Shown here in pieces: positions 24,772 to 62,612 of a stretch of 64,000 nucleotides of DNA. This DNA comes from Oscillospiraceae bacterium (lineage in GTDB: Bacteria > Bacillota > Clostridia > Oscillospirales > Oscillospiraceae): contig JAFUGY010000099.1 of the NCBI GenBank assembly GCA_017469115.1, positions 12,079 through 76,078 on the forward strand, given 5' to 3'. Position 1 is the first letter of the stretch, and the number at the start of each line of letters is the position of its first letter. Under the pieces are notes generated by a model. The model ran no database searches and had not been told where the DNA came from. It worked only from the letters and a program-made list of their open reading frames with translations. The translations under genes were made by a program, and so were the position numbers.

Positions 24772-24903
24772 GGAACGATACAGGCTTCTGACGCGCTGTT
24801 AATCTGAGAGCAAAAAGAAGCATAAAATATTGCTTGCAGTGGTTTTGGCGTTGATCGTAAGTAATTTAATGATTCTTATGAGGAGAAGAAAGAGCAGAGT
24901 GCT

Positions 24904-26490: not shown

Positions 26491-26539
26491 GTAGTCTAAA
26501 GATTGTCGAGGCCAGAAAACCAGGAGGCTTTAAAGAGCT

Positions 26540-27890: not shown

Positions 27891-27997
27891 AACAGCGTGC
27901 AAGGCTTATTCTTGTATCTCCTCAAAGGATATGATAAAACAATCGGAGCAACAACATCCCGGCTTCCGTAAAATGTAACAAACTGCAGGAGACAGTT

Positions 27998-42154: not shown

Positions 42155-45100
42155 TTATCCTGCCGGGCTCCACACGGCGTAGAGGGTGACTGTCTCGTTG
42201 TTGGAGGAGGCAAGATCTGTTACTCTTGCCCTATTGAGATAGGTGGGGGTGCCGGCATTCGGATCGGTGCTCCAGCCGAGGAAGACGTAGCCGGGCAGGC
42301 GGAAGCTGTTGCTTGTGAGCGCATAGGTTCTGCCGAAGAGACGATTGGTGAGATCTCTCATGGTGCCGGTCACCTTGCCACGGCCCTGGGCATTGCTGTC
42401 AAAAGCAATGTTGTATTTCAGCTGCGTCCATTTTGCATAAACCGTGACGGCTCCGCTGCCGGACTTATTTTCGTTGATGGTGATAACCGGAGTGCGGAAG
42501 GAGGAATCGCTGTACCATCCGGAGAACAGATAACCGGCACGGCTGGGAGCCTGAAGCACAACGCTCTGCTTTGTAGTATAAGCAGCGGGATTCGGGTTGC
42601 TGTCGGAGGAGAGAATATTGCGATAGGTAATGCGATAGGTTACCTCAGCCCATTGTGCATAAAGGGTTACGATTGCGCCGTTTTCTGTGGCGAGGGAAGT
42701 GACGCGCGCCCTGTTCGCATAACTGTTGCCGGAACCGTCAGGAGCTGTATTCCATCCGGTAAAGGTGTAGCCGGCACGTTTGAAAACGTTGTTTTTCAGC
42801 GAATAGCTGCGCGAGGCAATGCAGCCGGAGAGAGGATCCATTGTACCGGTGCCGCCGTTGGCTTCAAATACGATGGTGTAGGAATAGGGCAGCCACTGGG
42901 CATAGAAGGTGAGATTACCGGTAGTTCCCTGCGGGATTGAAGTGACAGGATTGGTGTAGCGGGAATCTGAATACCATCCGCCGAAGATGTATCCCGACCG
43001 GCTGAGCCCTGAGAGCGTAATTGCGGCATCTTTCGCCGTATAGACGGTCGGATTTGGATTGTTGTCAGATGCGGTAACATTCCGGTAGGTAATGTTATAC
43101 GAAAGGGGAGCCCATTGCGCATAGAGTGTGATAACAGATCCGTCACCGGAAGCAAAATTCGCCTGGCGTGCACGGTTGGTATAGGCAGTTCCGCTGCCAT
43201 CCGGAGCTGTATTCCACCCGGTAAAGGTGTAGCCTGTTCTGCGGTAGGCATTGGATGTGAGCGTAACGGTGTTGCCGTACAGCCGGTTTTCCAGCGCACG
43301 CATGGTGCCGGAAGTTGCTCCGTTGCCGTCAAATTGAATGGTGTAGCTGTGCGCAGCCCAGACGGCGTAAAGTGTGACAGTCTGCCCGTTCCCGGTAGTC
43401 AGATTGGAGACAGACGCTCCGTTATCGTATACAACTTTACCACGGGCAGCAGTTGCCCAGCCGTCGAAGGTATAGCCTTCTCTTGTGAAAGTGCAGGCGG
43501 GCAGTGTGTAGGCGGTGCCATAGGTGTACCGGAGAGAGGCCATCTCGCCGCTGCCACCATTGGGATTGAAAGCGAGGAAATAGCCATTCGTCATCCATAC
43601 TGCAAATAAGGTGACGGTTCCGCCGGCTTCCGCCGTCAGATTGCTGACTGACTGCCTGTCGGTGTATTCATATGTGGTAGCTGAAGGATTGACTGACCAG
43701 CCTGCAAAGGCAGCGCCGTCTTTCCGGAAGGAGTTTGCCGTGAGAGCGACCTGCCGGTCATAGGTCATCGTCTGCGAGCGATGGCTGCCGGCACCGCCAT
43801 TCGGATCGTAGATGACAGTATAGGTGTTGGCCTTCCATTTGGCATATAGCGTGAGATTACCTGTCGTTCCGGAAGAAAGGACGGATACCGGTGTTCCGGA
43901 CAGAGAGGAGGTTTGATACCAGCCTTCAAAGGTATAGCCTGTGCGGGATGGTGCAAGTAGCGTCAGTTCTTCTTCTCCCGTATAGGAAGCCGGATTTTCC
44001 TTCGCGTTGGTGCCGCCGTTGCATTCATACAGAATCTGATATTCAGACGGTTCAGGTTCTTCCTCCGGATCAGTGGTAGTGCTCTCCGAATAATCCGTAT
44101 CCGGAACCGGGTAGGAAGAAGCAAAGGAAGCGCTGTTGAACTTATCTCCCTTATAGGAGAGGCCGCTTTGCTTGTGGTTTTGCAGCCACCAGGTGTTTCC
44201 GCGCAGGAAGTAAAGATAATTGGATCGTCCTGCATCCCAGGTTGCATCAAGATGATAATATTTGCTTCCGACCCGCGCAATATTCCAGGCATGCTGCATG
44301 GCTTTGCTGTCGATAACGCGGGCGTTTACACCCGCTTCCAGACAAAGCCGATAAAACGCTACCGAATAACCCTGGCATACTGCCGTCTTCTGTACGAGGG
44401 CAGCATACCCTGTATACTTCAGCGTATAAGCGGCATCACTGGCATGCGCATCGTCGTATGTTACGTTGGCGCAGAGATAATCATAAATCGCTTTGATCTT
44501 CTGGTAGTCCGTTTTTCCAGAAAGGTTGAGTTGGGAGAGAACAGAGTTCACTTTACTCGTCATTTCACTTTCCTGGGCTGCGGTAGTATAGTAGAGCGGC
44601 GCGTAGTTGAAAAGATAAGAATACTGGTTGGATCCATCCAGCTTGACCGGGCCGGCACCTGTAGCGTTGTAACCCCCGAATTCATAAAGCAGATAATCAC
44701 CTTCGGTAGGAGCACCGGTATGGGAAACTGCATTTGCATAGATGTTGGAGCACAGCGTGTTCCAGTTCAATTGTTCGGAGGATTGATAGAAAATACGGAT
44801 TTCGGAATTCCGAGCGATCATGGCGTTTTTCAGTGCACTTCCGGCAGAAGAGGTATCCTGGTAAAACGTGTCAGCAGAAGAGAATAAAGCGCTTGGAGCG
44901 GCCTGAAAAGTAACGGAGTAACTTGCCTGATTACCGGTGTTGGCTTCTACATAGTCCGCAATGGTATCTCCGATTTGCTGTAGCAGATCGGCACACTCGT
45001 CCGGTGTAGTGGATGCGCCGGGTATATCCGATGTGTCCAACACCGCTTCATAGATGGGGTTGACCATTGTCACAGAGTGGACTTCCATGTCAATAATCTG

Positions 45101-45835
45101 ATCCATAACAGATGGTGCAGGCGTCAGAACGAGGTCAACCTTCCGTTCCGGTTTGTCCCATTCCACCAGGAAAGGGGTATACTCAATTGCTTCAAATTTA
45201 CCGCTTTCATCCCGGAAAGAATAGGCATAGATGCCCGGCGCAAGGTAATAGGTGCCGTAGACAGGCTGCAAGGTTGAAGGGTCCGTATAAGGGCTTACCG
45301 GCTGCCAGTTCGAGTCATAGATCTGAAGCCCGGAAAGGTCTTCCGATTGCTCACAGGAGAAGAGAACCTTTACAACAGCGTATACGGTCATGCCGTCTGA
45401 CTCTGCCAGAATCTCAGCCGTAGGGAGAGGGGCAGGGGTAGACGAAGGTTCGGGAGTTCCCTCCTTGATTGACTTAGCAGTGGGCTCGGCAGCCTGGACA
45501 ACAGGTTCCTGAGCCGGGATAACAGTCGGGTTCGGGCTTGGTGCCGCAGTTGGTTCCGGGCTAGGGGCTGTGGTTGGTTCCGGGCTTTGGGCGGTAGTTA
45601 CCTCGGGAGCTGATTCGACAGTCGGTTCCGAATTCGGAGTGGCAGTCGGCTCCGGAGATGACTTATCCGTTGCCTCGGTAGACTGTGGAATCGTGAGCTG
45701 AATGCCGTTCGGCATCAGCGCTGCCCCGGTGTCAGAATCGGTTGTATCGCTGGTTATTGCAAAAGCAGAAGCCTGCACCATGGAAAGGCAGAGCGCCACA
45801 GTCAGAAGCAGTGAAAGTGTTTTTTTAGGAAACAT
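42155..45835 (-). CDS. large secreted surface protein: signal peptide, Pro/Thr-rich linker, transglutaminase-like cysteine protease core, >=8 Listeria-Bacteroides (Flg_new) repeats
   Basis: 1226 aa with signal peptide 'MFPKKTLSLLLTVALCLSMVQASAFA' and a 'SPEPT(A/T)AP' linker. The C/H/D core is 'CQGYSVAF...HAWN...HLDATWD'. Repeats have the form 'GY(T/I/L/V)F.GW.....G...Y.......(V/L)T(L/F/V)YA.W'. Confidence 0.8.
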   Translation of the reverse strand: MFPKKTLSLLLTVALCLSMVQASAFAITSDTTDSDTGAALMPNGIQLTIPQSTEATDKSSPEPTATPNSEPTVESAPEVTTAQSPEPTTAPSPEPTAAPSPNPTVIPAQEPVVQAAEPTAKSIKEGTPEPSSTPAPLPTAEILAESDGMTVYAVVKVLFSCEQSEDLSGLQIYDSNWQPVSPYTDPSTLQPVYGTYYLAPGIYAYSFRDESGKFEAIEYTPFLVEWDKPERKVDLVLTPAPSVMDQIIDMEVHSVTMVNPIYEAVLDTSDIPGASTTPDECADLLQQIGDTIADYVEANTGNQASYSVTFQAAPSALFSSADTFYQDTSSAGSALKNAMIARNSEIRIFYQSSEQLNWNTLCSNIYANAVSHTGAPTEGDYLLYEFGGYNATGAGPVKLDGSNQYSYLFNYAPLYYTTAAQESEMTSKVNSVLSQLNLSGKTDYQKIKAIYDYLCANVTYDDAHASDAAYTLKYTGYAALVQKTAVCQGYSVAFYRLCLEAGVNARVIDSKAMQHAWNIARVGSKYYHLDATWDAGRSNYLYFLRGNTWWLQNHKQSGLSYKGDKFNSASFASSYPVPDTDYSESTTTDPEEEPEPSEYQILYECNGGTNAKENPASYTGEEELTLLAPSRTGYTFEGWYQTSSLSGTPVSVLSSGTTGNLTLYAKWKANTYTVIYDPNGGAGSHRSQTMTYDRQVALTANSFRKDGAAFAGWSVNPSATTYEYTDRQSVSNLTAEAGGTVTLFAVWMTNGYFLAFNPNGGSGEMASLRYTYGTAYTLPACTFTREGYTFDGWATAARGKVVYDNGASVSNLTTGNGQTVTLYAVWAAHSYTIQFDGNGATSGTMRALENRLYGNTVTLTSNAYRRTGYTFTGWNTAPDGSGTAYTNRARQANFASGDGSVITLYAQWAPLSYNITYRNVTASDNNPNPTVYTAKDAAITLSGLSRSGYIFGGWYSDSRYTNPVTSIPQGTTGNLTFYAQWLPYSYTIVFEANGGTGTMDPLSGCIASRSYSLKNNVFKRAGYTFTGWNTAPDGSGNSYANRARVTSLATENGAIVTLYAQWAEVTYRITYRNILSSDSNPNPAAYTTKQSVVLQAPSRAGYLFSGWYSDSSFRTPVITINENKSGSGAVTVYAKWTQLKYNIAFDSNAQGRGKVTGTMRDLTNRLFGRTYALTSNSFRLPGYVFLGWSTDPNAGTPTYLNRARVTDLASSNNETVTLYAVWSPAG
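42158..44017 (-). repeat. tandem coding repeats (~70-80 aa Flg_new units, approximate bounds)
   Basis: At least eight units end in ...LYAKW, LFAVW, LYAVW, LYAQW, FYAQW, LYAQW, VYAKW and LYAVW. Two units share 'GYTFTGWNTAPDGSG..Y.NRAR' almost verbatim. Confidence 0.7.
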
Positions 45836-46105: not shown

Positions 46106-46468
46106 ATGCACGACGAGGAAATCTATTATCATGATCATGGGGATGGAGTGATCCACAGCCACACGGTGATCCATGGGGAAGAGGGATCAGCGCATGAGCA
46201 TACCCATGCCCATGTACATACGCAAACCAAGGTTGTTGTCAATCGCCTGGCAAGAGCAATCGGCCATCTGGAGCATGTGAAACGGATGGTAGAAGAGGGG
46301 CGGGATTGCACGGAAGTTTTGATTCAGCTTGCCGCGGTGCGCTCAGCCTTAAACAGCACAGCAAAAATCATTATCAAAGACCATATTGAGCACTGCATCA
46401 CAGATGCCGACAGCGGAAGCGAAGAAAGCCTGAAGGAGCTCAACGAGGCAATAGATAAGTTTATTTAA
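46106..46468 (+). CDS. csoR: CsoR/RcnR-family metal-sensing repressor with His-rich N-terminal extension
   Basis: 120 aa. The core 'RLARAIGHLEHVKRMVEEGRDCTEVLIQLAAVRSALNSTAKIIIKDHIEHC' carries the x-C-H-C ligand pattern. The N-terminal ~40 aa contain 11 His. Confidence 0.8.
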   Translation: MHDEEIYYHDHGDGVIHSHTVIHGEEGSAHEHTHAHVHTQTKVVVNRLARAIGHLEHVKRMVEEGRDCTEVLIQLAAVRSALNSTAKIIIKDHIEHCITDADSGSEESLKELNEAIDKFI

Positions 46469-46574
46469 TGTCGTTCTTTGTGTGATGTAACCTGCTCGCG
46501 AGACGACTATTTACCTCGAATTCGATCCGATATTGCAATCAAGTATGAGAAGGCTGACCAGTAAAGAATAGCAA

Positions 46575-46618
46575 AACAGCAGAGTTGAAGCCCAATGGAG
46601 GGTGACAGCTCTGCTGTT
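46575..46618. terminator. bidirectional terminator hairpin between csoR and ccsA
   Basis: 10-bp perfect stem aacagcagag / ctctgctgtt with a 24-nt loop, between convergent genes. Confidence 0.5.
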
Positions 46619-46639
46619 TGTTAGGTTAAGGAAGATAAT

Positions 46640-47455
46640 TCAGGCGTAGCTGTGGATCCCGGGGAGGAAGGTGTTGACGCCGAGATAGGTAAACATTACG
46701 CAGACAAAACCCACCACGGCAAAGATGGCGGCGGACTTCCCCTGCCAGCCGCGTCGAAGGCGAAGATGCAGGTAAGCTGCATAGACAAGCCATGTGACAA
46801 GAGACCAGGTTTCCTTCGGATCCCAGGACCAGTAGCTTCCCCACGCTCGTTCTGCCCAGATGGCACCGGTGACGATGGTGAAGGTCAGAAACAGAAGCCC
46901 GAGAGAAACGCTGCGGTAACTGATGACGTCCAGCTTTTCCCGGTTTGGAATATGCTGATCTAAAAAACCCTTTTCTTTCATACGGTCACGCAGGAGAAAG
47001 ATGATGGACAGCACAAAGGAAACACCGAAAGAACCGTAAGCAATGATTGCCGTTGAAACATGAAAACCCAGCCAGTTGCTGCGCAGCGCCGGCATCAGCT
47101 CATGCACCTCTTTGCTCTGCATGGCTGCGTAGCCGATGATGACGAAAACCAGCGGGGCGGCAAAAGCGCCGAGCACCGGAAAATGAAATCGCAGCACAAA
47201 AATAAGGCTGACGAGGCAGAGCCCCCAGGCAAATGAGGTTGCAAATTCATACTGGTTGGTAAGCGGGAGTCGACCGGCTCCGATGCCTCTACAGATCAGC
47301 GCGATTGTGTGGAGGACAAAACCGATAATCTGAAGCAGAATTGCCACTCTGGAAAAGGAATCGCGTTTGAAGGCAATAAATAAGAAGTAAAGGATCATTG
47401 CGGCAAAGTAGAGAAGCATAACGATGGTAGAAAGCGTGTTTTCAATCTGCAGCAT
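46640..47455 (-). CDS. ccsA: cytochrome c biogenesis (system II) heme-handling protein CcsA/ResC
   Basis: W-rich motif 'WGSYWSWDPKETWSLVTW' and 8 TM helices. The start was chosen at MLQIEN (ATG 47455) with AAAGGAG 7 nt upstream. The longest ORF reaches 47485. Confidence 0.88.
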   Translation of the reverse strand: MLQIENTLSTIVMLLYFAAMILYFLFIAFKRDSFSRVAILLQIIGFVLHTIALICRGIGAGRLPLTNQYEFATSFAWGLCLVSLIFVLRFHFPVLGAFAAPLVFVIIGYAAMQSKEVHELMPALRSNWLGFHVSTAIIAYGSFGVSFVLSIIFLLRDRMKEKGFLDQHIPNREKLDVISYRSVSLGLLFLTFTIVTGAIWAERAWGSYWSWDPKETWSLVTWLVYAAYLHLRLRRGWQGKSAAIFAVVGFVCVMFTYLGVNTFLPGIHSYA

Positions 47456-48740
47456 GGTTAATCTCCTTTCCGGCTCCGCCGGCACGGGCGGCAGCCAGGA
47501 ATTTTTCCTGAAAGAGGATCCCGCTTTTTGCGCTGCCGTGGACAGCCCAGGAGCCGGATCCTTCCTTTATGGCCCATACTTTGGCCGGCTGAACATAGAA
47601 AGCAAGCAAAAGCCCGATCACGGTTACGAAGCCACCGAGAAACGCAAGCCAGGTAAAGGAATCCTTTTTGGCCTGAATCAGGGTATAGTTCCGGGGTTCA
47701 GAAAAGATTACGGTATACTCATCAATCGTCAGCTCTTCTTCTCCTATGAGCACATTCATCCCCAGAATCTGATCCTGATAATAGACGGTATAGAGCGTTG
47801 CCGGGTTGTTGAGATGACCGGATACGGTCTTGGGGCCGCTGCCCGGAACAAAAACGTAGTCCGGATAAAAAGCGTTGAAGTAAATGACGAGGTCTGGTTT
47901 ATCGGAAATGCGCAGATATTCTCCGGCACAAAGCAGTTCAGCCTGAAGAGGTTCTCCGTTTTCTGTCACGGTTATCTGCTCTGCCCATCCGGTGGAATTC
48001 TGATAAAACTTCCATCCCAAAAGCGTTGCAGGATGGTTAACGCTGACAGTTGCACTCTGTACGGTTCCCTTTGCAGGATCGCCGACGGTGAGGTCGGCTG
48101 TGTATTGCTCCACCGTGTCATCTTCCCGAAGACCGATCCGGAAATCATCAATGGTGAGGATGAGGCCGGTGTCTCCAACAGGTTTTGTCTGCCCCGCAAT
48201 ACCGTAAACGCTTGCCTGCTGCTGCGTGATCTGACCGAGGCTGAAGCCCGCAATCAGAAACAGAATCCCGAGATGGCAAACCCAGGCACCCCACAGGCCG
48301 ATGCTGTTTTTGGAAGCATAGAGCACTTCACAGCCGTTTTCGTCCGATCCCCGGGAAGGGGACATATGGAGGTGCTGAAACACTGCGTCGGGGTCTGTGA
48401 TATCCTGTGCTGAAAATGCAGCGGTGCTGTTCTTCGGAGGGGAGGACTGGGCCTTTACCCGCTGCCGGATCTGCGGGAAGCGGATGATATTGCAAAACAG
48501 CAGATTGAGGCAGAGGAAAAGCGCAATCAGTAGAAACCACCAGCTGTGAAACGCGTCATCCAGATGCAGTGCCAAAATCAGGGCGGCAGTGCGTTCGGAA
48601 TAGTGTTGTGCATACCAGGTGTAAGACTGGCCTTGTGTGATAAAGCTTGCAGCAGAACAGGCCCCTGCCAGAATGACAAGCAGCAAAATGGCAAAACGCA
48701 TGGAAGAGAGAAACTTCCAGATCTTTTTAATGGAAGACAT
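47442..48740 (-). CDS. resB: cytochrome c biogenesis protein ResB/Ccs1
   Basis: 432 aa with 'MSSIKKIWKFLSSMRFAILLLVILAGAC', a large extracytoplasmic loop and a C-terminal TM helix. It is adjacent to ccsA. Confidence 0.78.
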   Translation of the reverse strand: MSSIKKIWKFLSSMRFAILLLVILAGACSAASFITQGQSYTWYAQHYSERTAALILALHLDDAFHSWWFLLIALFLCLNLLFCNIIRFPQIRQRVKAQSSPPKNSTAAFSAQDITDPDAVFQHLHMSPSRGSDENGCEVLYASKNSIGLWGAWVCHLGILFLIAGFSLGQITQQQASVYGIAGQTKPVGDTGLILTIDDFRIGLREDDTVEQYTADLTVGDPAKGTVQSATVSVNHPATLLGWKFYQNSTGWAEQITVTENGEPLQAELLCAGEYLRISDKPDLVIYFNAFYPDYVFVPGSGPKTVSGHLNNPATLYTVYYQDQILGMNVLIGEEELTIDEYTVIFSEPRNYTLIQAKKDSFTWLAFLGGFVTVIGLLLAFYVQPAKVWAIKEGSGSWAVHGSAKSGILFQEKFLAAARAGGAGKEINHAAD

Positions 48741-48756
48741 GGCAGCCCTCCTTTCT

Positions 48757-48799
48757 GAGAAAAATAACAGAAGAGAACAGAGAAACCTATTCTCTTCTG
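48757..48799 (-). terminator. internal terminator-like hairpin between nrfA and resB
   Basis: Minus strand reads CAGAAGAGAA-taggtttctctg-TTCTCTTCTG followed by TTATTTTTCTC, immediately before the resB SD (AAAGGAGG). Confidence 0.55.
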
Positions 48800-48879
48800 C
48801 CGAAAGAGATCTGATTTGTTTCGTGTTCTATGAGGCTAAAACACAAAAAAGGGGGTGTTTGGCAACTGAATACGATCCT

Positions 48880-50160
48880 TTATGCGCCGAGGAGAGCCAT
48901 CGCTTCTGCAATTTTTGCCTCCGAGGTATCCAGACAGGAGAAAGCGAGATCGGAGTTGTGGGCACCTTCAGAATTTTCCACATAACAGAAATCGAAGAAC
49001 CACTGTGCTTCCCGGTGCAGCTTGCGCACGGCATCAAGCTCCTCTTCATTCATCTTTCCTTCCGAAATAGCTGCTGCCAGCGTATCCTTGAGGGTGGAAA
49101 GTTTGTTCCCTACAGCAGTTTCCCGCGCCGTGACACGGCTCTGAAGGCGGTGCACCATATTCACCATGTCAGTGTCGCCGTGGCAGGTTGCACAGGTGGA
49201 GAGGAGAGTTTCATTCTCCAGAGGGCTTGCAAGATAATGGCTGTGGTAGATTGTTCCGTCATCTGCCTGCTCAATCGCCATGTGGCAGTCCGCACAGTTC
49301 AGCAAAGCGGCATGCTTGCCCTGAAGGAAGGTCTCAAATTCCGGATGCTGTGCTTTCAGCATTTTTGTGCCTGTAGCTTCCTGAATCCAGTCGTAGAAGT
49401 CGAAAGAATCGTAATAGGCAAGAATCTCTGCGGGGTTCATGCTTGCAATATCATGATATGGCATCATGGTCTCGCTGTCTTCGCGGGTGAAGTAATATTC
49501 GATATGGCACTGGCCGCAGGACATTGTGGCAGGATCGATTTCTTCAATGGTGTTGCCGAGCGCTTTGATGGCATAGGAATGGGTGACGGTGAGCTTTCCG
49601 TTGCTGCCGGCATCGTTGGCATGGCAGGTATAGCAGCTGATGTTTTCCTCCATCATTCCGAGCACTTCATCAAAGGGCATGGAGTAGATGCCGACACCCT
49701 GGTCATTCACCAGTTTTGCAAAGTTGGGAGTTTTGCAGGTCAGGCAGTTTGCTTTCGGATGCGGGCGCTGGGTCTTGGCAACATCTGCAAGGGTATACTC
49801 ATGGCCGCGGGCACTGCCGTAGTCCTTGGCAAATCCATACCCCTCGTAAATGTTGGTTAGATACGGATCCTGCTCCAGATAATCGGTTACATAGCTGTTT
49901 TTATCGTTGGCACGCATGGAAGCCACGATATACGGATAAGATTCTGCCCAGTCCTGCGCATTGACAGTGCCGTCGTTGCTTGTTGCCTCCGGAGCCTCAA
50001 GGTCTTGATAGGCAATGTCCGATCGTGTGAGTGGACCGAGAGCACCGCGGTTTTTCAGATGATACATCATGTCTCCGCCTGCAAGGCCGCTCATAAAGCC
50101 AATCGCCAGGACAAGCAGAAGAACTGCAACGATTATTTTGTTCAGTTTGATTTTTTCCAT
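48880..50160 (-). CDS. nrfA: pentaheme cytochrome c nitrite reductase (ammonia-forming) NrfA, N-terminally membrane-anchored or exported
   Basis: 426 aa with five heme motifs: CLTCK (active-site CxxCK), CYTCH, CGQCH, CADCH and CATCH. It also has 'GFAKDYGSARGHEYTLADV' and the N-terminal helix 'KIIVAVLLLVLAIGFMSGLAG'. Confidence 0.9.
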   Translation of the reverse strand: MEKIKLNKIIVAVLLLVLAIGFMSGLAGGDMMYHLKNRGALGPLTRSDIAYQDLEAPEATSNDGTVNAQDWAESYPYIVASMRANDKNSYVTDYLEQDPYLTNIYEGYGFAKDYGSARGHEYTLADVAKTQRPHPKANCLTCKTPNFAKLVNDQGVGIYSMPFDEVLGMMEENISCYTCHANDAGSNGKLTVTHSYAIKALGNTIEEIDPATMSCGQCHIEYYFTREDSETMMPYHDIASMNPAEILAYYDSFDFYDWIQEATGTKMLKAQHPEFETFLQGKHAALLNCADCHMAIEQADDGTIYHSHYLASPLENETLLSTCATCHGDTDMVNMVHRLQSRVTARETAVGNKLSTLKDTLAAAISEGKMNEEELDAVRKLHREAQWFFDFCYVENSEGAHNSDLAFSCLDTSEAKIAEAMALLGA

Positions 50161-50174
50161 CGTCCATTTCCCCC

Positions 50175-50990
50175 TTAAGTGGAAGCTTCCGGTTTTTTAA
50201 AACCGAGCGGAAGGGTAATAACCTTGGAGGGGCATTTTTCGGCGCATTTGCCGCATTGCACACAGTTTTCATAGGTGACGCGGGCGAGGTTATCGGTCAC
50301 GTGGATGGCATCGTGCTCGCATTGCCTGACGCACATCGCGCATCCGATGCACCCGGCCGTGCAAACTTTCTTGACCAGTGGCCCTTTGTCCCTGCTGGAG
50401 CACTGCACCGAAACATGTTTGCTCTCTGGGACAAGGTCAATCAGGCTGCGAGGGCATGCCTTTGCGCATAGGCCGCAGCCGACGCATTTCATGCGGTGTA
50501 CAACTGCGACTCCGTTGATTACGTGGATGGCGTCATGAGGGCAGGCAGCCACGCAGGAGCCGAATCCCAGGCAGCCAAAGCTGCATTCCGTCACAGGGAT
50601 CCCTGCGAATACGGCGCTGCGGCAGTCCTGAATGCCGACGTAGTTGCCCTGATTGTGGGTGACGTCGCAGTCTCCTTTGCACTGTACGAATGCAACCTTC
50701 CGCTCTACATCCTCTGCGGTAGTGCCCATGATGGCAGCGACTTTTGCCGCTACCGGTGCACCCCCCACAGGGCAGCCGTTTACGGGCGCTTGGCCGGAAA
50801 CGATTGCCGCAGCCATGGCATCGCAACCTGCAAAGCCGCATGCACCGCAGTTGTTGCCCGGGAGGCATTCACGCACGGCTGTCTCACGCTCATCTACTTC
50901 CACGTGGAATTTTTTCCCTGTATAGACGAGCCCATACCCTACAATAATACCGATAATGGTGATAACCAGAGTAGTGAGTAATATGATCAT
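50175..50990 (-). CDS. rnfB: Rnf complex subunit B (polyferredoxin)
   Basis: 271 aa with an N-terminal TM helix, 'LPGNNCGACGFAGCDAMAAAIV...GCPVGG' and several CxxCxxCxxxCP ferredoxin motifs. Confidence 0.9.
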   Translation of the reverse strand: MIILLTTLVITIIGIIVGYGLVYTGKKFHVEVDERETAVRECLPGNNCGACGFAGCDAMAAAIVSGQAPVNGCPVGGAPVAAKVAAIMGTTAEDVERKVAFVQCKGDCDVTHNQGNYVGIQDCRSAVFAGIPVTECSFGCLGFGSCVAACPHDAIHVINGVAVVHRMKCVGCGLCAKACPRSLIDLVPESKHVSVQCSSRDKGPLVKKVCTAGCIGCAMCVRQCEHDAIHVTDNLARVTYENCVQCGKCAEKCPSKVITLPLGFKKPEAST

Positions 50991-51003
50991 AAAGCTCCTC
51001 CTA

Positions 51004-51582
51004 TCAGAATTTCAGACTTGAGAAGCCCATGAAAGCGATGGACATCAATGCCGCGGAAATCAACACAATTGGAGCGCCGCGAAGAGGGGCGGGAATGTCC
51101 TCCTCGTGGATTCTGGAGCGGATGCTGGCGAGGAGAACAATGGCAATGGTATAACCGACTGCCGTTCCGAACCCGCTGAGAACGCTCTGGATAAAGTTAT
51201 ATCCATCCTGCACATTTGTCAGCGCAACACCGAGTACGGCGCAGTTTGTGGTGATCAGCGGGAGATAGATCCCAAGTGCCTTGTAAATGGCAGGAGAGGT
51301 TTTCTTCAGGAACATCTCGACGATCTGAACGAGAGCTGCGATAACAAGGATGAAGACGATGGTCTTCATAAAGTCCATTCCGAGAGGGGCGAGAATATAG
51401 TCATACAAAAGGTTTGCAACGGCAGAAGCGATTGTGATGACGAAGATAACGGCTACACCCAGGCTGGCAGAAGCCTTGATTTGCTTGGAAACGCCGAGGA
51501 AGGAACAGATGCCGAGGAACTGATTGAGAACAACATTGTTGATCAACGCGCTTGTGATCACGATAAGAATCAGGCTTTTCAT
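51004..51582 (-). CDS. rnfA: Rnf complex subunit A
   Basis: 192 aa with 'NNVVLNQFLGICSFLGVS' and 'LPLITTNCAVLGVAL'. Both conserved Cys are present. Confidence 0.92.
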   Translation of the reverse strand: MKSLILIVITSALINNVVLNQFLGICSFLGVSKQIKASASLGVAVIFVITIASAVANLLYDYILAPLGMDFMKTIVFILVIAALVQIVEMFLKKTSPAIYKALGIYLPLITTNCAVLGVALTNVQDGYNFIQSVLSGFGTAVGYTIAIVLLASIRSRIHEEDIPAPLRGAPIVLISAALMSIAFMGFSSLKF

Positions 51583-52268
51583 TTCTCAGCGTCTCCTTCC
51601 TCTTTTTCACATGGGGAAGCACAATTACTGCAGCAGCCGTCACATCCGCTTTCCACAAGCTTTTTCTGCCGGGTTTTGATACCAATGGCATTCATAATTG
51701 TGATGATAAAGGCAATGACGAGGAATGCTCCCGGAGGCTGAACAAAGATGCCGATGGGCGGAATGCTCTCCGGCAGAATCTGAGCTCCGAACAGCGTTCC
51801 GTTGCCGATGAGCTCACGGATGGAGCCCGCAATGGTAAGAGAAATGGTGAAGCCAAGGCCCATCCCCAGACCATCCATGGCGGAAACGCCGGGTTCATTT
51901 TTGTTGGCATAAGCTTCCGCGCGGCCGAGGATAATGCAGTTGACGACGATCAGTGGGATATAAATGCCGAGGGCTTCGTAAAGCGAGGGAAGATAAGCTT
52001 CAATCAGCAGTTCTGCTACCGTGACGAGAGAGGCCACAATCACGATGTAAGCCGGAAGACGGACTTCGTCCGGGATCGCTTTGCGCAGGATGGAAATAAC
52101 AATATTGGAGAGAATCAGAACGGCTGTGGTAGAAAGCCCCATGCCGATGCCATTGATGGCGCGGGTTGAAACGGCAAGCGTCGGGCACATGCCGAGCATC
52201 AGAATCATGGTCGGATTTTCTTTGACAATACCGTTATAGAGACGTTCCAGATATTTATTCATCTTCAC
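51579..52268 (-). CDS. rnfE: Rnf complex subunit E (with Cys-rich C-terminal tail)
   Basis: 229 aa with 'NPTMILMLGMCPTLAVST' and 'IPLIVVNCIILGRAEA'. The C-terminal tail is 'SGCDGCCSNCASPCEKEE'. Confidence 0.92.
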   Translation of the reverse strand: MKMNKYLERLYNGIVKENPTMILMLGMCPTLAVSTRAINGIGMGLSTTAVLILSNIVISILRKAIPDEVRLPAYIVIVASLVTVAELLIEAYLPSLYEALGIYIPLIVVNCIILGRAEAYANKNEPGVSAMDGLGMGLGFTISLTIAGSIRELIGNGTLFGAQILPESIPPIGIFVQPPGAFLVIAFIITIMNAIGIKTRQKKLVESGCDGCCSNCASPCEKEEGDAEK

Positions 52269-53848
52269 ATCGCTCCCTTCACAACAGAATAATAGAAGTC
52301 AAGCGCTGCGTTAACAGCATTGACGACTGCCCCGGATGTGGTGGACGCGCCGGATACGGAGTCGATTTCATTTTCAGCCGTAGAACCGCCGGTTTTGTTC
52401 AGAATAAACTGCGTCACGGTTTTCCCACTGAACTGGTCTTTAAAGGCGGGTTCGCCGGCTCGCATACCCATGCCGGGGGTTTCGTTGAGCTCAGTAAAGG
52501 AGATACCGGTAACCGTCCCGTTGCTGTCAATGCCGACGGAAAGCGTGATGTCACCGTCAAAACCGTCTCCACTTGTTACGCTGATTGCATGACCGATGAT
52601 AGATCCGGTGTCATCTTTTCCGATGACGACCTCCCGGATCATGGCACGGCCGAAGTTCGTGCCGTAAATGTCTCCGTCGAGATCTGCCAGTGCTTCTTCA
52701 ACAGCATCATCAAATTCAAAGGAAGCCGCATCCGGTAGAACGGAACGGTAGGAGGCAGCTTTGGCAGCCCGTTTCTGTGCTTCAATGGTGTCCTTCGTCA
52801 TAGCGTAGACGCCGCTGAGAGCAATGCCCGAGATGAGTGCAATCACCGTCAGCACCACAACAGGCTTCGGGATGCTGTCTTTCAGGGATTTCTTTGCTCC
52901 GGCTTCTCCGCTGCGCATTGCAATTGCCTTTCTGGTATAGGCAAATGGCTTCGGGTAGATGAACATATCAATCAGGGGCACAAACAGGTTACCGATGATA
53001 ATGGAATAACTGAAAGAGTCGGATGCGCCGCTTTTGACGCGGAAAAGCCCGCCAAGCACACCGATGATGATGCCATAGACCATTTGCCCGAGCTTGCTGA
53101 CCGGAGATGTGGCATAATCAGATGCCATAAAGAATGCTCCCATGACGACACCGCCGCCGCAGATATGAGCCAACAAATATTTTGGGTCAAATCCCTGACC
53201 GCCGAAGAGCCCCATAAAAACGGTAAAGGAGATCAGAACGGAAAAGCAGATTTCACCGTGAATGATATCCATAGCCCACAGAACAAGCCCGCCGAGGAGC
53301 ATGCAGGCAGTGGAACTGCCGATTACGTCATTCGGCACACCGAGGAACATTTTCGTAATGTTGACGGCTTTGCCCTGCATCAGCATTGCCACCGGGGTGG
53401 CGGAGGAAACGCCGTCAACTGTATAAGTCGTCATGAGGGTGCCGAATGAGATCAGCAGGAAGCACCTTGCTGCAAGAGCGGGGTTCACAAAATTTTTTCC
53501 GAGACCACCGAAACAGCATTTCACAATCAGAATTGCAAATACCGAGCCAAGGATCGGAAGAAACAGAGGAACGCTGGGGGAGAGAGTCAAAGCCAGCATC
53601 AATCCGGTGATAACTGCGCTGCCGTCCTTCCAGGTGTCCGGTTTTTTGGCAAAGCGGTCAAAGAGTAATTCCGTCAACACGGCTGCGACCACCGAACAAG
53701 CCGCAACCAGAAAAGCGTGGAATCCGTTGATGGCGATGCCTACAATGGTTGCCGGGAGCATGGAAAGAATGACGGCCCGCATGATAAACATAGTCGTCCA
53801 TCTGTCCCTTACATGAGGCACGGGCGAGATATTCAATGTTTGATTCAT
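52265..53848 (-). CDS. rnfD: fused Rnf subunits D and G
   Basis: The start at MNQTLNISP forms an ATGA overlap with the rnfC stop. The RnfD part has 'GLGKNFVNPALAAR', 'DGVSSATP' and 'MASDYATSP'. A TM helix is followed by an RnfG FMN-binding domain: 'ETPGMGMRAGEP' and 'IDSVSGASTTSGAV'. Confidence 0.88.
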   Translation of the reverse strand: MNQTLNISPVPHVRDRWTTMFIMRAVILSMLPATIVGIAINGFHAFLVAACSVVAAVLTELLFDRFAKKPDTWKDGSAVITGLMLALTLSPSVPLFLPILGSVFAILIVKCCFGGLGKNFVNPALAARCFLLISFGTLMTTYTVDGVSSATPVAMLMQGKAVNITKMFLGVPNDVIGSSTACMLLGGLVLWAMDIIHGEICFSVLISFTVFMGLFGGQGFDPKYLLAHICGGGVVMGAFFMASDYATSPVSKLGQMVYGIIIGVLGGLFRVKSGASDSFSYSIIIGNLFVPLIDMFIYPKPFAYTRKAIAMRSGEAGAKKSLKDSIPKPVVVLTVIALISGIALSGVYAMTKDTIEAQKRAAKAASYRSVLPDAASFEFDDAVEEALADLDGDIYGTNFGRAMIREVVIGKDDTGSIIGHAISVTSGDGFDGDITLSVGIDSNGTVTGISFTELNETPGMGMRAGEPAFKDQFSGKTVTQFILNKTGGSTAENEIDSVSGASTTSGAVVNAVNAALDFYYSVVKGAM

Positions 53849-55194
53849 TTCTTCCCTCCCACTGCCGCGCGCTTCTGCGCAAGTATTTCTGCTTTCGTCC
53901 GCATAAAGGTCTGTGTTAAAGGCCGCTTGGCCGGGCAGATATAGCTGCAGCAGCCGCACTGGATACACTCAAGCCCGTAGAGCTTCTTTTCATAGCGCTC
54001 CAGATCTCCTGCCTGCACGGCATCAGCCAGCATTTGCGGTAGAAGCCCCACCGGGCATACTGTTGTGCACCTTCCGCACCGCAGGCACGACGTCATGATA
54101 GACGCTGCAACCTCGCTTTGATCCACTGTCACGAGGGCGACGCCGCTGCTTGTTTTCTGAATCGGCACATCGAGGTTCGGAATCGCGATGCCCATAATCG
54201 GCCCGCCGACGATGGCTTTTTTTACAACCGCGCCTTCTTTAAGGCCGCCGGCTGCTTCGATCAATTCAGAAAAGCTCATCCCATCCCGCACGATAAAGTT
54301 ACCCGGGGTTTTCACGGCATCCCCCGTTAAGGTGAACGTATGGGTGAACAACGGTTCCAGATAGGCGACAGCACGGTCAATGGCATAAATGGTGCAGGCA
54401 TTCTGCACAATGCATCCGACCTCTGCCGGAAGCATGGAGGAGGGATAATTGATCCCGGCGACGGTTTCAATCAGCATTTTTTCCCCGCCCTGGCCGTATT
54501 TTGCTTTGGCTGCGAGCACAGAGAGTTTATCATTCCCAGCCGAAGCCTTCCGCATGGCTTCAATGGCTTCGGGCTTGTTGTCTTCAATCACGATAACGCC
54601 TTCAGCGTTCGGAAACAGGCGGAGCATTAGAGAAAGGCCTTCTGCAATGGAGTCTGCCTGGGAGCGCATCAGCTGATCCGTCCCGGTGAGATAAGGCTCA
54701 CATTCCGAACCGTTGGCAATGACATAACGGATAGCATCGGGATTTTTGGGAGAAAGCTTTACATGGGTGGGGAATCCTGCCCCGCCCAGGCCAACAATCC
54801 CGGCCTCCCGGATTCTCCGGAGAATTTCTTCTTTGCTGAGAGAAGAAATATCCTGCCTTACTCCGATGCCTTCCATGCGGGAATACTGCCCGTCATTGTC
54901 GACGACAATGCATTCAACCATCTGTCCGTTCTGTACACGGCGTTTTTCCACAGCCTTCACTTTACCCGAGCAGGAAGAGATGACATGCGCGGAAATCAAA
55001 CCATCGGCTTCTCCGATTTTCTGGCCGGCGAGAACTTCATCCCCCTTTTTTACGAGAGGTTTAGCGGGTTTGCCGATATGCTGCAAAAGGGGGAAAACCA
55101 TTTCACCTTTCGCATTCAGGACACGCAGCGGGACATCGCGTGTCAGCTCCTTGTGGCTGATCGGATGTACACCGCCGCGAAACGTGTTTTTCAC
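53845..55194 (-). CDS. rnfC: Rnf complex subunit C
   Basis: 'TFRGGVHP', 'GLGGAGFP', 'NGSECEPYLT' and two ferredoxin motifs 'CLRCGRCTTVCP' / 'CIQCGCCSYICP'. The start was chosen at GTG 55194 (AAAGGAG with 8-nt spacer). The longest ORF reaches 55203. Confidence 0.92.
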   Translation of the reverse strand: MKNTFRGGVHPISHKELTRDVPLRVLNAKGEMVFPLLQHIGKPAKPLVKKGDEVLAGQKIGEADGLISAHVISSCSGKVKAVEKRRVQNGQMVECIVVDNDGQYSRMEGIGVRQDISSLSKEEILRRIREAGIVGLGGAGFPTHVKLSPKNPDAIRYVIANGSECEPYLTGTDQLMRSQADSIAEGLSLMLRLFPNAEGVIVIEDNKPEAIEAMRKASAGNDKLSVLAAKAKYGQGGEKMLIETVAGINYPSSMLPAEVGCIVQNACTIYAIDRAVAYLEPLFTHTFTLTGDAVKTPGNFIVRDGMSFSELIEAAGGLKEGAVVKKAIVGGPIMGIAIPNLDVPIQKTSSGVALVTVDQSEVAASIMTSCLRCGRCTTVCPVGLLPQMLADAVQAGDLERYEKKLYGLECIQCGCCSYICPAKRPLTQTFMRTKAEILAQKRAAVGGKK

Positions 55195-55255
55195 GAACCT
55201 CACTCCTTTCAGAGATTTAAGAGAACTGCAGGTGAGAGAAACAGCAGTTTTGTCT

Positions 55256-55284
55256 ATTTTAACAAAGGCAGTGTGGTTTGTAAA
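55256..55284 (-). promoter_or_regulatory. sigma-A-type promoter of the rnf-nrfA operon
   Basis: Minus strand reads TTTACA - 17 nt - TAAAAT, about 60 nt upstream of the rnfC start. Confidence 0.5.
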
Positions 55285-55297
55285 TGCTAATTCACAT
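55278..55297 (-). promoter_or_regulatory. Rex-like operator candidate overlapping the -35
   Basis: Minus strand reads ATGTGAA-ttagca-TTTACAA, against the Rex consensus TTGTGAA-N6-TTCACAA (12 of 14 half-site positions match). Confidence 0.4.
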
Positions 55298-56787: not shown

Positions 56788-56816
56788 TTGACATTCCTGC
56801 GGTTTGATGATACTAT
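56788..56816 (+). promoter_or_regulatory. sigma-A-type promoter
   Basis: TTGACA - 17 nt - TACTAT, 50 nt upstream of ATG 56866. Confidence 0.6.
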
Positions 56817-56865
56817 GACAATGACCAAATCCATTGGATCAAATACACTTATAGGAGAAAACAAA

Positions 56866-57864
56866 ATGAAAAAAATTCTCGCAATCACGCTTCTTCTCTG
56901 CATGATGCTCGTCATGGGTGCATGGTCTGCTTCCGGAGAAGAGTACACTCTTGGTATGGGTGTTGTTGTCAGCACGGATTCTTCCGATACCAACAATGCA
57001 CAGGTTGATGCAACGGTTGCTGCCGTTGTTCTCGACAAGGACGGCAAGATTGCTGCCTGCCGGATTGACTGCGCACAGAGCAAGATGGATGTTACCGACG
57101 GCGAAGTCGACGCAGAGAAGGAATTCCTCTCCAAAGTCGAGCTGAAGGAAGACTACAACATGGTCAAGTTCTCCGATGCTACTCTCGAGTGGTATCAGCA
57201 GGCTGCCAACTTCGAGGAGTTCTGCGTCGGTAAGACGGCTGACGAAGTCCTCGCCACTGAAACTGTTCTCAACGATGAAGGCCACACCGTTTTTGTCGAT
57301 GAGACGCTCCACGCTTCTGTTTCTATTTCTGTTGCTGACATGCAGCAGGCTGTTGCCAAGGCATGTGCTGACGATCAGGCTGTTACCTTCACTGCCAACG
57401 GTGATGTAACCTTCGGTCTCGCCTGCAACACGGAAGCCACCGAGTCTGTTGCCGCAACCGACGATGCTGACGGTGTTGTCAAGATGTACACCGATTTTGC
57501 TGCTGCTGTTGTGGATGCTGACGGCAAAGTTCTCGCAAACCTCCAGGATGCTATCCAGCCTCAGATCGTCATTGATATTGACGGCGAGATTGGCGACATT
57601 ACCTTCCGCGGCACAAAGCGTGAGCTGAAGGAAGACTATAACATGGTCAAGTTCTCCGATGCTACTCTCGAGTGGTATCAGCAGGCTGCCAACTTTGAAG
57701 CCTATGCCAACGGCAAGACGGCTGAAGAGCTCGCCGGCGTTGAGACGGTTGTCAACGAAGAAGGCCACCAGGTCTTTGCAGATGAAACGCTGCTTGCTTC
57801 CGTTTCCATCAGCATCGACGGTATGACCGACGTCCTTGTCAAGGCAATCGGCTACGCACGCTGA
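56866..57864 (+). CDS. exported tandem FMN-bind-like domain protein (PplA-like) with non-canonical flavinylation motif
   Basis: The start at MKKILAITLLL has AGGAG upstream and a signal peptide. Two homologous ~150-aa halves each contain '(E/R)LKEDYNMVKFSDATLEWYQQAANFE..GKTA(D/E)E(V/L)' and end in 'DETL(H/L)ASVSIS', where FMN_bind domains carry D..SGAT.TS. Confidence 0.55.
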   Translation: MKKILAITLLLCMMLVMGAWSASGEEYTLGMGVVVSTDSSDTNNAQVDATVAAVVLDKDGKIAACRIDCAQSKMDVTDGEVDAEKEFLSKVELKEDYNMVKFSDATLEWYQQAANFEEFCVGKTADEVLATETVLNDEGHTVFVDETLHASVSISVADMQQAVAKACADDQAVTFTANGDVTFGLACNTEATESVAATDDADGVVKMYTDFAAAVVDADGKVLANLQDAIQPQIVIDIDGEIGDITFRGTKRELKEDYNMVKFSDATLEWYQQAANFEAYANGKTAEELAGVETVVNEEGHQVFADETLLASVSISIDGMTDVLVKAIGYAR

Positions 57865-57888: not shown

Positions 57889-58965
57889 ATGGTTTCAATT
57901 CATTCCGGCAGATGGTTTCGTTTCTTTATCCTGATGATGGCGGCTGCGCTCCTTCTGGCGGGCTGCGGCAGTCAGGTTCAGGAAACCAAACCCATTGAGC
58001 CGAAAGGGAAGGTTTATTTTACCTATTTTGATACGGTCTCCTACATCTATGATTATTCTGGCGATTCGGCAGAACGGTTTGACGACCGTTCTGCCGAAAC
58101 ATCACTTCTGCTGGAAGAATATCACCGTCTTTTTGATATTTACCACGAATATGCAGGCATCAACAACCTCTGCACACTGAACAAAAAGGCAGGGGGGGAA
58201 GCCCTTCCTGTTGACGAAAAGCTGATCGATTTTCTCCTGTATGCCAAAGAGATGGAGAATTTGACACACGGAGAAATGAATGTGATGCTCGGTGCTGTCC
58301 TGCGTTTGTGGCATGAATGCCGGGAGGAAGCGTCCGAGTCCCCCTCCAAGGCCAGAATTCCGACAGAAGAGGCTCTGTACGCAGCTTCTGCCCATACGTC
58401 GATTGATCTGCTGGAGATCGACCCGGAGAAGAAAACTGTGCGTATTTCTGACCCGGAAGCATCCATAGATGTCGGAGCACTGGGGAAGGGCTATGCCACA
58501 GAAATGGCAGCCCGTATGCTCGAGGAGAAAGGTGCTCTTGGCTATGTGCTCAACATCGGGGGGAATATCCGCATCATCGGGTCCCGCCCGGACGGTACCG
58601 GCTGGAAGACCGGCATTCGCAATCCGTCTGATCCTGACGGTGCTTTTGCCATGCAGATCTATATTTCCGACACGGCATGCGTCAGTTCCGGCGTCTATGA
58701 GCGGTTTTTTGTGGCGGAAGGAAAACGCTGGCATCACATCATCGACCCGGATACGCTTTATCCGGCTGCAACTTTCAGTGCACTGACGGTCATCACAAAA
58801 GACAGCGGCCTTGCTGATGCCCTCTCCACGGCGTTATTCTGTATGGATTACGAGCAGAGTCGCAGCCTGGTGGATTCGCTGGACGGGGTTGAGGTATGCT
58901 GGTTCTTCCCGGATGGAGAACAGCGAATGACGGAAGGATTTTCCAAACTCATCGTAAAAGAATAG
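57889..58965 (+). CDS. apbE: FAD:protein FMN transferase (ApbE family) lipoprotein
   Basis: 358 aa with lipobox 'LLLAGCGS', 'GEMNVMLGAV', 'IDVGALGKGYA', 'NIGGNIR' and 'ACVSSGVYERFF...HHIIDPDT'. Confidence 0.88.
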   Translation: MVSIHSGRWFRFFILMMAAALLLAGCGSQVQETKPIEPKGKVYFTYFDTVSYIYDYSGDSAERFDDRSAETSLLLEEYHRLFDIYHEYAGINNLCTLNKKAGGEALPVDEKLIDFLLYAKEMENLTHGEMNVMLGAVLRLWHECREEASESPSKARIPTEEALYAASAHTSIDLLEIDPEKKTVRISDPEASIDVGALGKGYATEMAARMLEEKGALGYVLNIGGNIRIIGSRPDGTGWKTGIRNPSDPDGAFAMQIYISDTACVSSGVYERFFVAEGKRWHHIIDPDTLYPAATFSALTVITKDSGLADALSTALFCMDYEQSRSLVDSLDGVEVCWFFPDGEQRMTEGFSKLIVKE

Positions 58966-60370: not shown

Positions 60371-60371
60371 T

Positions 60372-61310: not shown

Positions 61311-61311
61311 T

Positions 61312-62610: not shown

Positions 62611-62612
62611 TC

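Follow-up and report, generated by a model that had tools for sequence, protein, structure and literature searches.

A Candidate Rnf-Fed, Quinone-Independent Nitrite Ammonification Module Encoded by an rnf-nrfA-resB-ccsA Operon of an Oscillospiraceae Bacterium

Gene Content and Organization of the rnf-nrfA Operon

We analyzed a 64-kb stretch of contig JAFUGY010000099.1 from an Oscillospiraceae bacterium (hereafter the window; all coordinates are positions within it), in which the genes of an Rnf complex run directly into nrfA, the gene of a pentaheme cytochrome c nitrite reductase, and then into a resB/ccsA pair for cytochrome c biogenesis. Eight genes follow one another on the minus strand in the order rnfC, rnfD~G, rnfE, rnfA, rnfB, nrfA, resB, and ccsA, and the gene calls are backed by Pfam matches, which are strong for all eight. 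The first gene, rnfC (53845-55203), encodes the NADH- and flavin mononucleotide (FMN)-binding subunit with 4Fe-4S domains (452 amino acids, aa; RnfC_N, Complex1_51K, SLBB, and Fer4). It is followed by an rnfD~rnfG fusion (52265-53848; 527 aa; NQR2_RnfD_RnfE and FMN_bind), in which the membrane protein RnfD is joined to an outward-facing, FMN-binding RnfG domain, and by rnfE (51579-52262; 227 aa; Rnf-Nqr, E = 3.6e-66) and rnfA (51004-51582; 192 aa; Rnf-Nqr). The product of rnfB (50175-50990; 271 aa; FeS, PF04060, and several 4Fe-4S domains) is the Fe-S subunit on the ferredoxin side and is anchored in the membrane by its N-terminus. Immediately downstream, nrfA (48880-50160) encodes a membrane-anchored pentaheme cytochrome c nitrite reductase of 426 aa (Cytochrom_C552, PF02335, E = 6.5e-76).

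The last two genes, resB (47442-48740; 432 aa; ResB, E = 3.5e-49) and ccsA (46640-47455; 271 aa; Cytochrom_C_asm, E = 1.3e-58), encode the two proteins of System II cytochrome c biogenesis, of which CcsA is the heme handling/lyase subunit. The translation of ccsA contains a WWD motif (WGSYWSWDPKE), and both marks of System II, i.e., the ResB and CcsA pair and the WWD motif, are found in the window. Given their co-location with nrfA, it is plausible that ResB and CcsA serve as a dedicated lyase for the CxxCK heme of NrfA.

The genes are tightly packed. The rnfC/rnfD~G and rnfE/rnfA junctions are ATGA overlaps, rnfA and rnfB are 13 nucleotides (nt) apart, and only 14 nt lie between the TAA of rnfB and the ATG of nrfA (50161-50174, minus strand; GGGGGAAATGGACG), a spacer that holds a Shine-Dalgarno sequence and nothing else. 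The first-pass annotation of this DNA had described a same-strand run of eight genes from rnfC to ccsA, rnf junctions of 4-nt overlaps or 13-14-nt gaps, and an rnfB-nrfA spacer into which a promoter would not fit; the coordinates, the Pfam match of each gene, and the spacer itself bear out this description.

Relatives of the operon were collected in a synteny survey, for which an NrfA scan of 185,579 species-representative genomes yielded 79 distinct loci (given below as L numbers where they need to be told apart). Nearly all are metagenome-assembled genomes (MAGs) from the gut of cattle, sheep, goat, yak, buffalo, deer or reindeer, and among the depositors' own labels for them are Clostridia, Oscillospiraceae, Lachnospiraceae, Solobacterium/Erysipelothrix, and Spirochaetales/Sphaerochaetaceae.

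Transcription Signals

A sigma-70-like promoter (TTTACA, 17 nt, and TAAAAT, with a TG element; 10/12 matches) is predicted upstream of rnfC at 55256-55284 on the minus strand, and of 56 related loci, 33 also have an 8-mer spanning its -35 element (TTTACAAA) within 250 nt upstream of rnfC. An intrinsic-terminator-like hairpin, with a 16-bp stem and then a U-run, lies between nrfA and resB (48766-48801, minus strand), that is, after nrfA and not after rnfB, and a hairpin and T-run of comparable kind were found in 35 of 68 related nrfA-resB spacers. The operon ends with a terminator hairpin after ccsA (46574-46619, minus strand; -23.2 kcal/mol, z = -5.8), which is followed by UUUUGCUAUUCUUU. On these signals, nrfA is predicted to belong to one transcription unit with the six Rnf subunits, and because of the placement of the promoter and terminators it appears to be coupled to the rnf genes more tightly than to its own heme-attachment genes. 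Searches upstream of rnfC in the 56 loci for FNR/CRP, FNR-type, and Rex boxes (300 nt) and for a common palindrome (250 nt) returned none above shuffled controls, and the one shared element was the -35-like TTTACAAA.

The Rnf Complex of the Operon

According to Pfam, all six Rnf subunits (C, D, G, E, A, and B) are encoded in the one operon, with D and G fused, and the best PDB matches of the proteins are the solved Rnf structures 7zc6 and 9eri. The rnfD~G product matched both RnfD (7zc6_D, E = 2.5e-66) and 9eri_G (E = 2.4e-21), and RnfA matched that of Acetobacterium woodii (9eri_A, E = 2.9e-64) with both [2Fe-2S] cysteines aligned. The cysteine motifs are GICSF and TNCA in RnfA and GMCP and VNCI in RnfE, while SSAT in the RnfD part and SGAS in the RnfG part of the fusion occupy the positions expected for the flavinylated residues. 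These features are maintained among the relatives: the Cys pair is kept in RnfA of 70/70 loci and in RnfE of 66/66 loci, with an intact RnfD~G fusion in 64/64. Judged from its residues, the Rnf of this operon is complete and canonical, with all cofactor residues kept, and ferredoxin:NAD+ oxidoreductase activity coupled to Na+ or H+ transport is predicted for it. Since the complex is canonical, a working housekeeping Rnf to which NrfA has been added as a branch is a better description than a dedicated Rnf with NrfA as its only output.

The NrfA Protein

The window NrfA contains five heme-binding motifs, beginning with CLTCK and continuing with CYTCH, CGQCH, CADCH, and CATCH, the pentaheme pattern with a leading CxxCK. 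Together with an N-terminal hydrophobic helix, which spans residues 2-27 in an AlphaFold2 (AF2) model, these motifs had already been read from the sequence at first pass, and the motif scan and the model recovered them all. The AF2 model is of moderate confidence (predicted local distance difference test, pLDDT, 69.7; predicted template modeling score, pTM, 0.71) and confirms the fold, docking being beyond its reach; the top hits of a Foldseek search with it were all NrfA structures, at template modeling (TM) scores of 0.63-0.67. NrfA of Escherichia coli and Shewanella match the window protein at E ~4e-46, and the RGH, EYY, and KAQHPE segments, with the catalytic Arg, Tyr, and His, are aligned. 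The same segments are invariant across 30 homologues, CLTCK is present in 69 of the 74 NrfA-like open reading frames (ORFs) examined, and all 79 homologues have at least one CxxCK.

NrfA enzymes reduce nitric oxide (NO), hydroxylamine, and sulfite in vitro, and none of the genes seen in the window encodes a nitrate reductase. These two points could be taken to mean that the wiring is as we propose below but that the job is a different one, mainly the detoxification of NO, hydroxylamine or sulfite and not nitrite respiration or electron disposal. We consider this improbable, as both the catalytic Arg/Tyr/His segments and the Lys-ligated heme motif show the conservation of bona fide nitrite reductases, and nitrite is presumably the physiological substrate. 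The question concerns the substrate only, and a detoxifying NrfA would be compatible with Rnf as its donor.

Tandem NrfA-NrfA fusions, with ten heme motifs per polypeptide, were also encountered (L039:10001-12421; P0123 and P0124, 811 aa; and P0279, 870 aa, from locus L087). P0279 has an N-terminal FMN_bind domain, and its gene lies within an rnf operon and is followed by a NusG_II-domain gene.

Conservation of the rnfB-nrfA Adjacency

When the eight window proteins were searched against the relatives by tblastn, the gene order of the window was recovered in nearly every locus with enough flanking DNA. The nearest locus, with an NrfA identity of 85%, is from a Candidatus Limivicinus MAG. An rnfB gene lies upstream of nrfA in 72 of the 79 loci, and in 68 of these 72 the gap is 150 nt or less (median 15 nt); with few exceptions, nrfA is followed by resB. 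The first-pass annotation had named an adjacency not shared by any relatives as a ground for giving up its proposal, and the survey answers this point decisively, with the adjacency conserved. The cassette is also abundant in ruminant-gut assemblies: at E <= 1e-20, matches were obtained to more than 2,000 protein clusters formed at 90% identity. Two loci, L054 and L061, keep rnfCDGEAB-nrfA and have a Sua5/YciO-like gene downstream instead of resB-ccsA; the heme-attachment genes must therefore lie elsewhere in those genomes.

Neighbor-joining trees of NrfA and of five Rnf proteins agree on most subclades, and in the NrfA and Rnf trees alike a Sphaerochaetaceae-labelled clade is nested among Clostridia. 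Distances of NrfA and of the Rnf subunits correlate only moderately in a mirror-tree test (r = 0.28-0.55), and we therefore used the shared subclades as evidence instead. These common subclades suggest that inheritance and transfer of the cassette occur as a unit.

It is conceivable that the conserved adjacency reflects co-expression only, with nrfA riding on a strongly expressed housekeeping rnf operon and receiving its electrons from a donor encoded elsewhere, such as an NrfH/CymA-type quinol dehydrogenase with menaquinone. The fully canonical Rnf agrees with this explanation, and so do three loci with nrfA-resB-ccsA and no rnf genes in the upstream DNA examined. We nevertheless regard it as unlikely. 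The full cassette is present in Sphaerochaetaceae-labelled MAGs, whereas cultured Sphaerochaeta have no c-type cytochromes or respiratory chains and have acquired many genes from clostridia (PMC3372971). The gene fusions and the donor searches described in the following sections also speak against co-expression alone.

Gene Fusions and Operon Variants

In three loci (L067, L073, and L078), the stop codon of rnfB is lost and rnfB is in frame with nrfA. In a large protein collection, such RnfB-NrfA fusions make up five clusters (P0121, P0122, P0125, P0126, and P0127), 59 member sequences in all. Contigs of two different samples/assemblies encode P0122 in identical form, and the fusion is therefore not an assembly error. 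The three fused loci fall in three different subclades, which points to independent fusion events, and their recurrence in three lineages speaks against co-expression alone. The topology of such a protein would be workable: lysines precede the NrfA helix, which places the NrfA N-terminus inside, and this fits a polypeptide that runs from the cytoplasmic C-terminus of RnfB through the transmembrane helix of NrfA to a heme domain on the outside.

A second type of fusion links NrfA to flavin. Among the best 120 clusters of a search that started from L080, approximately 105 combine FMN_bind (PF04205) with Cytochrom_C552 in proteins of 630-1190 aa. The inspected representatives start with a transmembrane helix, and several of them carry 1-6 FMN_bind domains with canonical [ST]GA[ST] flavinylation motifs, located before or after the NrfA domain. 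In all four of the genomic contexts examined, the FMN_bind~nrfA gene directly follows rnfB (rnfC-rnfD~G-rnfE-rnfA-rnfB-[FMN_bind~nrfA]-resB-ccsA). FMN_bind is the fold of RnfG. The variants indicate that NrfA proteins of this clade may take electrons from a covalently bound flavin, and they point to a flavin donor and not to the quinol or heme donor that would have to exist elsewhere if nrfA were merely co-expressed with rnf.

Further variants combine the operon with other reductases. In L011, an FMN_bind domain and a fumarate-reductase-like flavoprotein domain are inserted into NrfA itself. In L035 (L035:6504-9973), tatA, tatC, and a gene for a Tat-signal protein with FMN_bind and FAD_binding_2 domains (fumarate/urocanate-reductase-like) are located between rnfB and nrfA, and this single rnf operon therefore contains two different outward-facing reductases. 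Along with the FMN_bind-NrfA proteins, these arrangements indicate that the Rnf operon may be a platform for outward-facing reductases.

Search for Alternative Electron Donors

In a six-frame scan of the window, no ORF besides NrfA has more than one CxxCH. Pfam scans of the other window ORFs returned fermentative and housekeeping genes and no NrfC, NrfD, NapC or quinone-pathway gene; none of the partners known from NrfABCD, i.e., the pentaheme NrfB, the Fe-S protein NrfC, and the membrane protein NrfD, is among the scanned ORFs. The first-pass reading, by which the 64 kb contains no NrfH-type tetraheme protein and no NrfB, NrfC or NrfD, therefore holds under both the motif scan and the Pfam scans. 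In addition, no men or futalosine genes were found in the window. A methyltransferase at 225-1010 has a weak UbiE-family match alongside nine other methyltransferase models and is generic.

The surroundings of the relatives gave the same picture. Across 1.25 Mb around the 79 homologues, the ORFs with at least two CxxCH are NrfA homologues only, with no NrfH-, NapC- or NrfB-like cytochrome, and a multiheme ORF of the NrfH/NapC/NrfB kind lies within ~10 kb of nrfA in 0/79 loci. By contrast, nrfH normally adjoins nrfA (PMC12285233), and the lack of a multiheme partner near 79 nrfA genes argues against a conventional donor paired with co-expressed nrfA. That explanation can still draw on the confinement of the donor search in this genome to the window, as an nrfH gene may be located elsewhere in the genome.

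A Second rnf-Like Cluster and apbE

An apbE gene (57889-58965, plus strand; ApbE, E = 9.4e-61) lies 2.7 kb from the rnf-nrfA operon and encodes a flavin adenine dinucleotide (FAD):protein FMN transferase of 358 aa with a lipoprotein-type signal. From the known function of this family, ApbE is probably needed to flavinylate RnfD and RnfG. The features of ApbE-type flavinylation are present in the RnfG domain and in many relatives of NrfA, and the window NrfA, for its part, has no FMN_bind domain. Following apbE is a second, divergent rnf-like cluster (59033-63844, plus strand) of rnfC2, rnfD2 (~60369-61310), rnfG2, rnfE2, and rnfA2, in which rnfG2 (61312-62610, plus strand) encodes a 432-aa protein with two FMN_bind stretches. 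RnfA2 lacks both [2Fe-2S] cysteines, and RnfE2 apparently lacks the second. No rnfB follows the cluster up to the end of the window, a NusG_II-domain gene starting at 63841 instead. The cluster resembles an electron exporter to the outside that works without RnfB and may draw on NADH alone.

The neighborhood of these genes raises the question of whether another flavinylated exporter might feed NrfA, either the ApbE-dependent, NADH-driven rnfC2D2G2E2A2 or free or secreted flavins, with the Rnf of the operon (Rnf1) as a mere neighbor. The short distance, with apbE and a cluster with a long RnfG2 only 4 kb away, and the FMN_bind domains of many NrfA relatives would suit such a donor. However, the second cluster adjoins nrfA in no other locus found, the canonical rnfCDGEAB is the neighbor in 4/4 FMN_bind-NrfA contexts, and the partner in the in-frame fusions is RnfB of the canonical complex; we consider a donor of this kind very unlikely. 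As a conserved donor of NrfA, the second cluster was rejected, since neither it nor apbE accompanies nrfA in other loci.

Proposed Electron Transfer from Rnf to NrfA

Our preferred interpretation, to which we assign a probability of roughly 0.7, is that this operon combines a canonical Rnf with a terminal reductase, such that NrfA at the outer face of the membrane would take ferredoxin/NADH electrons from Rnf independently of quinones. The suggestion made at first pass, that Rnf may be the electron-input module for an extracytoplasmic NrfA, is supported by comparative genomics, through the synteny, the fusions, the link to flavin, the absence of other donors nearby, and the operon signals.

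In the proposed mechanism, the N-terminal helix of the exported NrfA would not be cleaved off and would tether the protein to the outside of the membrane, and the co-located ResB/CcsA System II would load NrfA with five hemes. Electrons from reduced ferredoxin would enter at RnfB and pass through the [2Fe-2S] center of RnfA/E to the covalent FMN of the outward-facing RnfG domain. At this flavin the path would branch, leading either through RnfD and RnfC to NAD+, as is usual, or to the hemes of NrfA, where nitrite would be reduced to ammonium. The usual RnfD/RnfC path would compete with the NrfA branch, and NADH could supply this branch in reverse through RnfC and RnfD. Neither a quinone nor NrfH nor NrfBCD would be needed. 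The RnfG flavin is probably the exit point of electrons toward NrfA, which would imply physical contact between Rnf and NrfA. According to a 2025 review, RnfG shuttles between RnfA/E and RnfD on the outside, with a conformational switch tied to the reduction of the RnfA/E cluster (PMC12174285). On this account, ion translocation could persist in the route from ferredoxin to NrfA.

At the least, the module would detoxify nitrite and give a fermenting bacterium a high-potential sink for electrons. A more far-reaching version is that Rnf and NrfA form a supercomplex, in effect a complete respiratory chain without quinones, carried on a mobile eight-gene cassette. As a ferredoxin(NADH):nitrite oxidoreductase, it would pump ions and pass electrons directly from the RnfG flavin to heme 2 of NrfA. 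We offer this version tentatively, at somewhat below even odds.

Several observations weigh against Rnf as the electron donor of NrfA. Charge would be moved against the membrane potential when electrons pass to an acceptor on the outside, which leaves the net energy yield of the route uncertain. Pfam detected no FMN_bind domain in the window NrfA, and direct contact between RnfG and heme is therefore an assumption. The canonical Rnf could simply be the housekeeping Rnf of the organism; the second rnf-like cluster of the genome has neither the Cys pair of RnfA2 nor an adjacent rnfB. The three loci without rnf (L052, L062, and L072), which contain nrfA-resB-ccsA and no rnf genes in 2.7-10 kb of upstream DNA, mean that the adjacency is not obligatory and that these NrfA proteins must obtain their electrons in trans. 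No site for a nitrite- or NO-responsive regulator was found upstream of rnfC in the 56 loci searched. Finally, the negative results on donors cover the window and the related loci, and it is possible that nrfH and a menaquinone pathway are encoded elsewhere in the genome.

Implications

Overall, the evidence supports assigning the operon to NrfA-type nitrite ammonification with a putative new electron-input module or, equivalently, to Rnf with a putative new terminal output. If this is true, Rnf would be a fourth kind of redox partner of NrfA, and a quinone-independent one, and a terminal reductase would join the known outputs of Rnf. On the supercomplex version, many rumen Clostridia and Sphaerochaetaceae considered "purely fermentative" would become nitrite ammonifiers. 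The existence of a ferredoxin/NADH-fed, quinone-independent route would alter the reading of nrfA hits in metagenomes. Ruminants are fed nitrate to cut methane, with nitrite build-up as the toxic risk, and it would therefore be of practical use to know which Clostridia remove nitrite and how they do so. The natural RnfB-NrfA and FMN-domain-NrfA fusions are ready constructs for testing electron transfer from a flavin complex to a multiheme enzyme.

Other Features of the Window

Immediately upstream of apbE, 56788-57864 (plus strand) encodes a predicted secreted protein or lipoprotein of 358 aa with two internal repeats (ELKEDYNMVKFSDATLEWYQQAANFE); it lacks an [ST]GA[ST] motif and has no significant match in Pfam. 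Convergent to ccsA is a gene for a CsoR/RcnR-type metal-sensing repressor with a His-rich N-terminus (46106-46468, plus strand), which is found at the same position in the closest relatives L003, L004, and L011 (84-85% identity). Beyond it lies the gene of a 1226-aa surface protein (42155-45835, minus strand), in which a Pro/Thr/Ser-rich N-terminal region is combined with a transglutaminase-like core and seven Listeria-Bacteroides repeats. A short enolase-like ORF (36319-36969, plus strand; 216 aa) retains the N-terminal domain but, of the C-terminal barrel, only the final portion, which may reflect truncation of an enolase gene or an internal deletion in it. The segment at ~22000-28600 has a GC content of 0.45, compared with ~0.50-0.54 elsewhere, and includes an HNH-endonuclease/helix-turn-helix (HTH) gene (26540-27502) and ORFs with no Pfam match; it may be the remnant of a mobile element.

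Comparison with Known Systems

In a 2025 review, the redox partners given for NrfA are limited to NrfH, CymA, and NrfB(CD), with no mention of Rnf (PMC12285233); in current accounts, that review included, these partners supply NrfA from the quinol pool. Conversely, a 2025 review of RNF and NQR never mentions nitrite, and its sole Rnf-linked cytochrome is MmcA of Methanosarcina (PMC12174285). In our literature search, whose coverage excluded subscription-only papers, we found no paper that places nrfA in an rnf operon. The first-pass view that no system of this kind had been described therefore stands as far as the nrfA-rnf operon is concerned, but not for the broader idea, as branching of Rnf to extracytosolic acceptors had already been proposed (PMC8238504; MmcA).

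Compared with NrfHA (Wolinella and Desulfovibrio) and NrfABCD (E. coli), the operon encodes the same catalytic pentaheme NrfA, with the CxxCK heme and the active-site segments, and nrfHAIJ operons likewise have System II heme-attachment genes adjoining nrfA. It differs in that NrfH, CymA, and NrfBCD are absent from the window and from the surroundings of its relatives, that the window NrfA is anchored by its own transmembrane helix and has rnfB upstream, and that the proposed donor is ferredoxin/NADH via a flavin and not menaquinol. A closer parallel on the side of NrfA is Natranaerofaba carboxydovora, a Gram-positive, quinone-free bacterium whose NrfA has a single transmembrane helix, no NrfH, and a donor declared unknown (PMC8359318). 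Its nrfA, however, is located with napAGHDF and not with rnf, and Rnf is mentioned there only as a Na+ pump (PMC8359318).

On the side of Rnf, the multiheme cytochrome c MmcA of Methanosarcina is co-encoded with Rnf (bioRxiv 10.1101/2023.04.20.537704; PMC12174285). The Rnf-MmcA system of Methanosarcina acetivorans resembles the window operon in that a multiheme c-type cytochrome of the rnf operon is thought to draw electrons from Rnf at the outer face. MmcA is a heptaheme protein of the octaheme tetrathionate reductase family, whereas the window cytochrome is a terminal enzyme of the NrfA family (a nitrite reductase), encoded by the last structural gene, and its hosts are bacteria; the resemblance is functional only.

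Meheust et al. (2021) proposed a second, branching path from RNF to extracytosolic acceptors for RNF clusters that encode multi-flavinylated "RnfG" proteins, some of which, in Christensenellales, combine FMN-binding and multiheme domains (PMC8238504). The FMN_bind-NrfA fusions described above probably belong to this multiheme "RnfG" class. The main text of that paper does not contain "NrfA," uses "nitrite" only for NirS with NapH-like systems, and draws no link between RNF and nitrite (PMC8238504), and the window NrfA differs from the proteins reported there in having no FMN_bind domain at all.

The flavin link also invites comparison with systems of the Listeria FrdA/PplA type, in which ApbE-flavinylated FMN_bind domains likewise pass electrons to an outward-facing reductase. 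Flavoprotein reductases of this kind are found inside the rnf-nrfA operon in L035 and L011. The Listeria FrdA/PplA-type systems draw on the quinone pool through Ndh2/EetAB, whereas the cassette encodes no membrane module other than Rnf.

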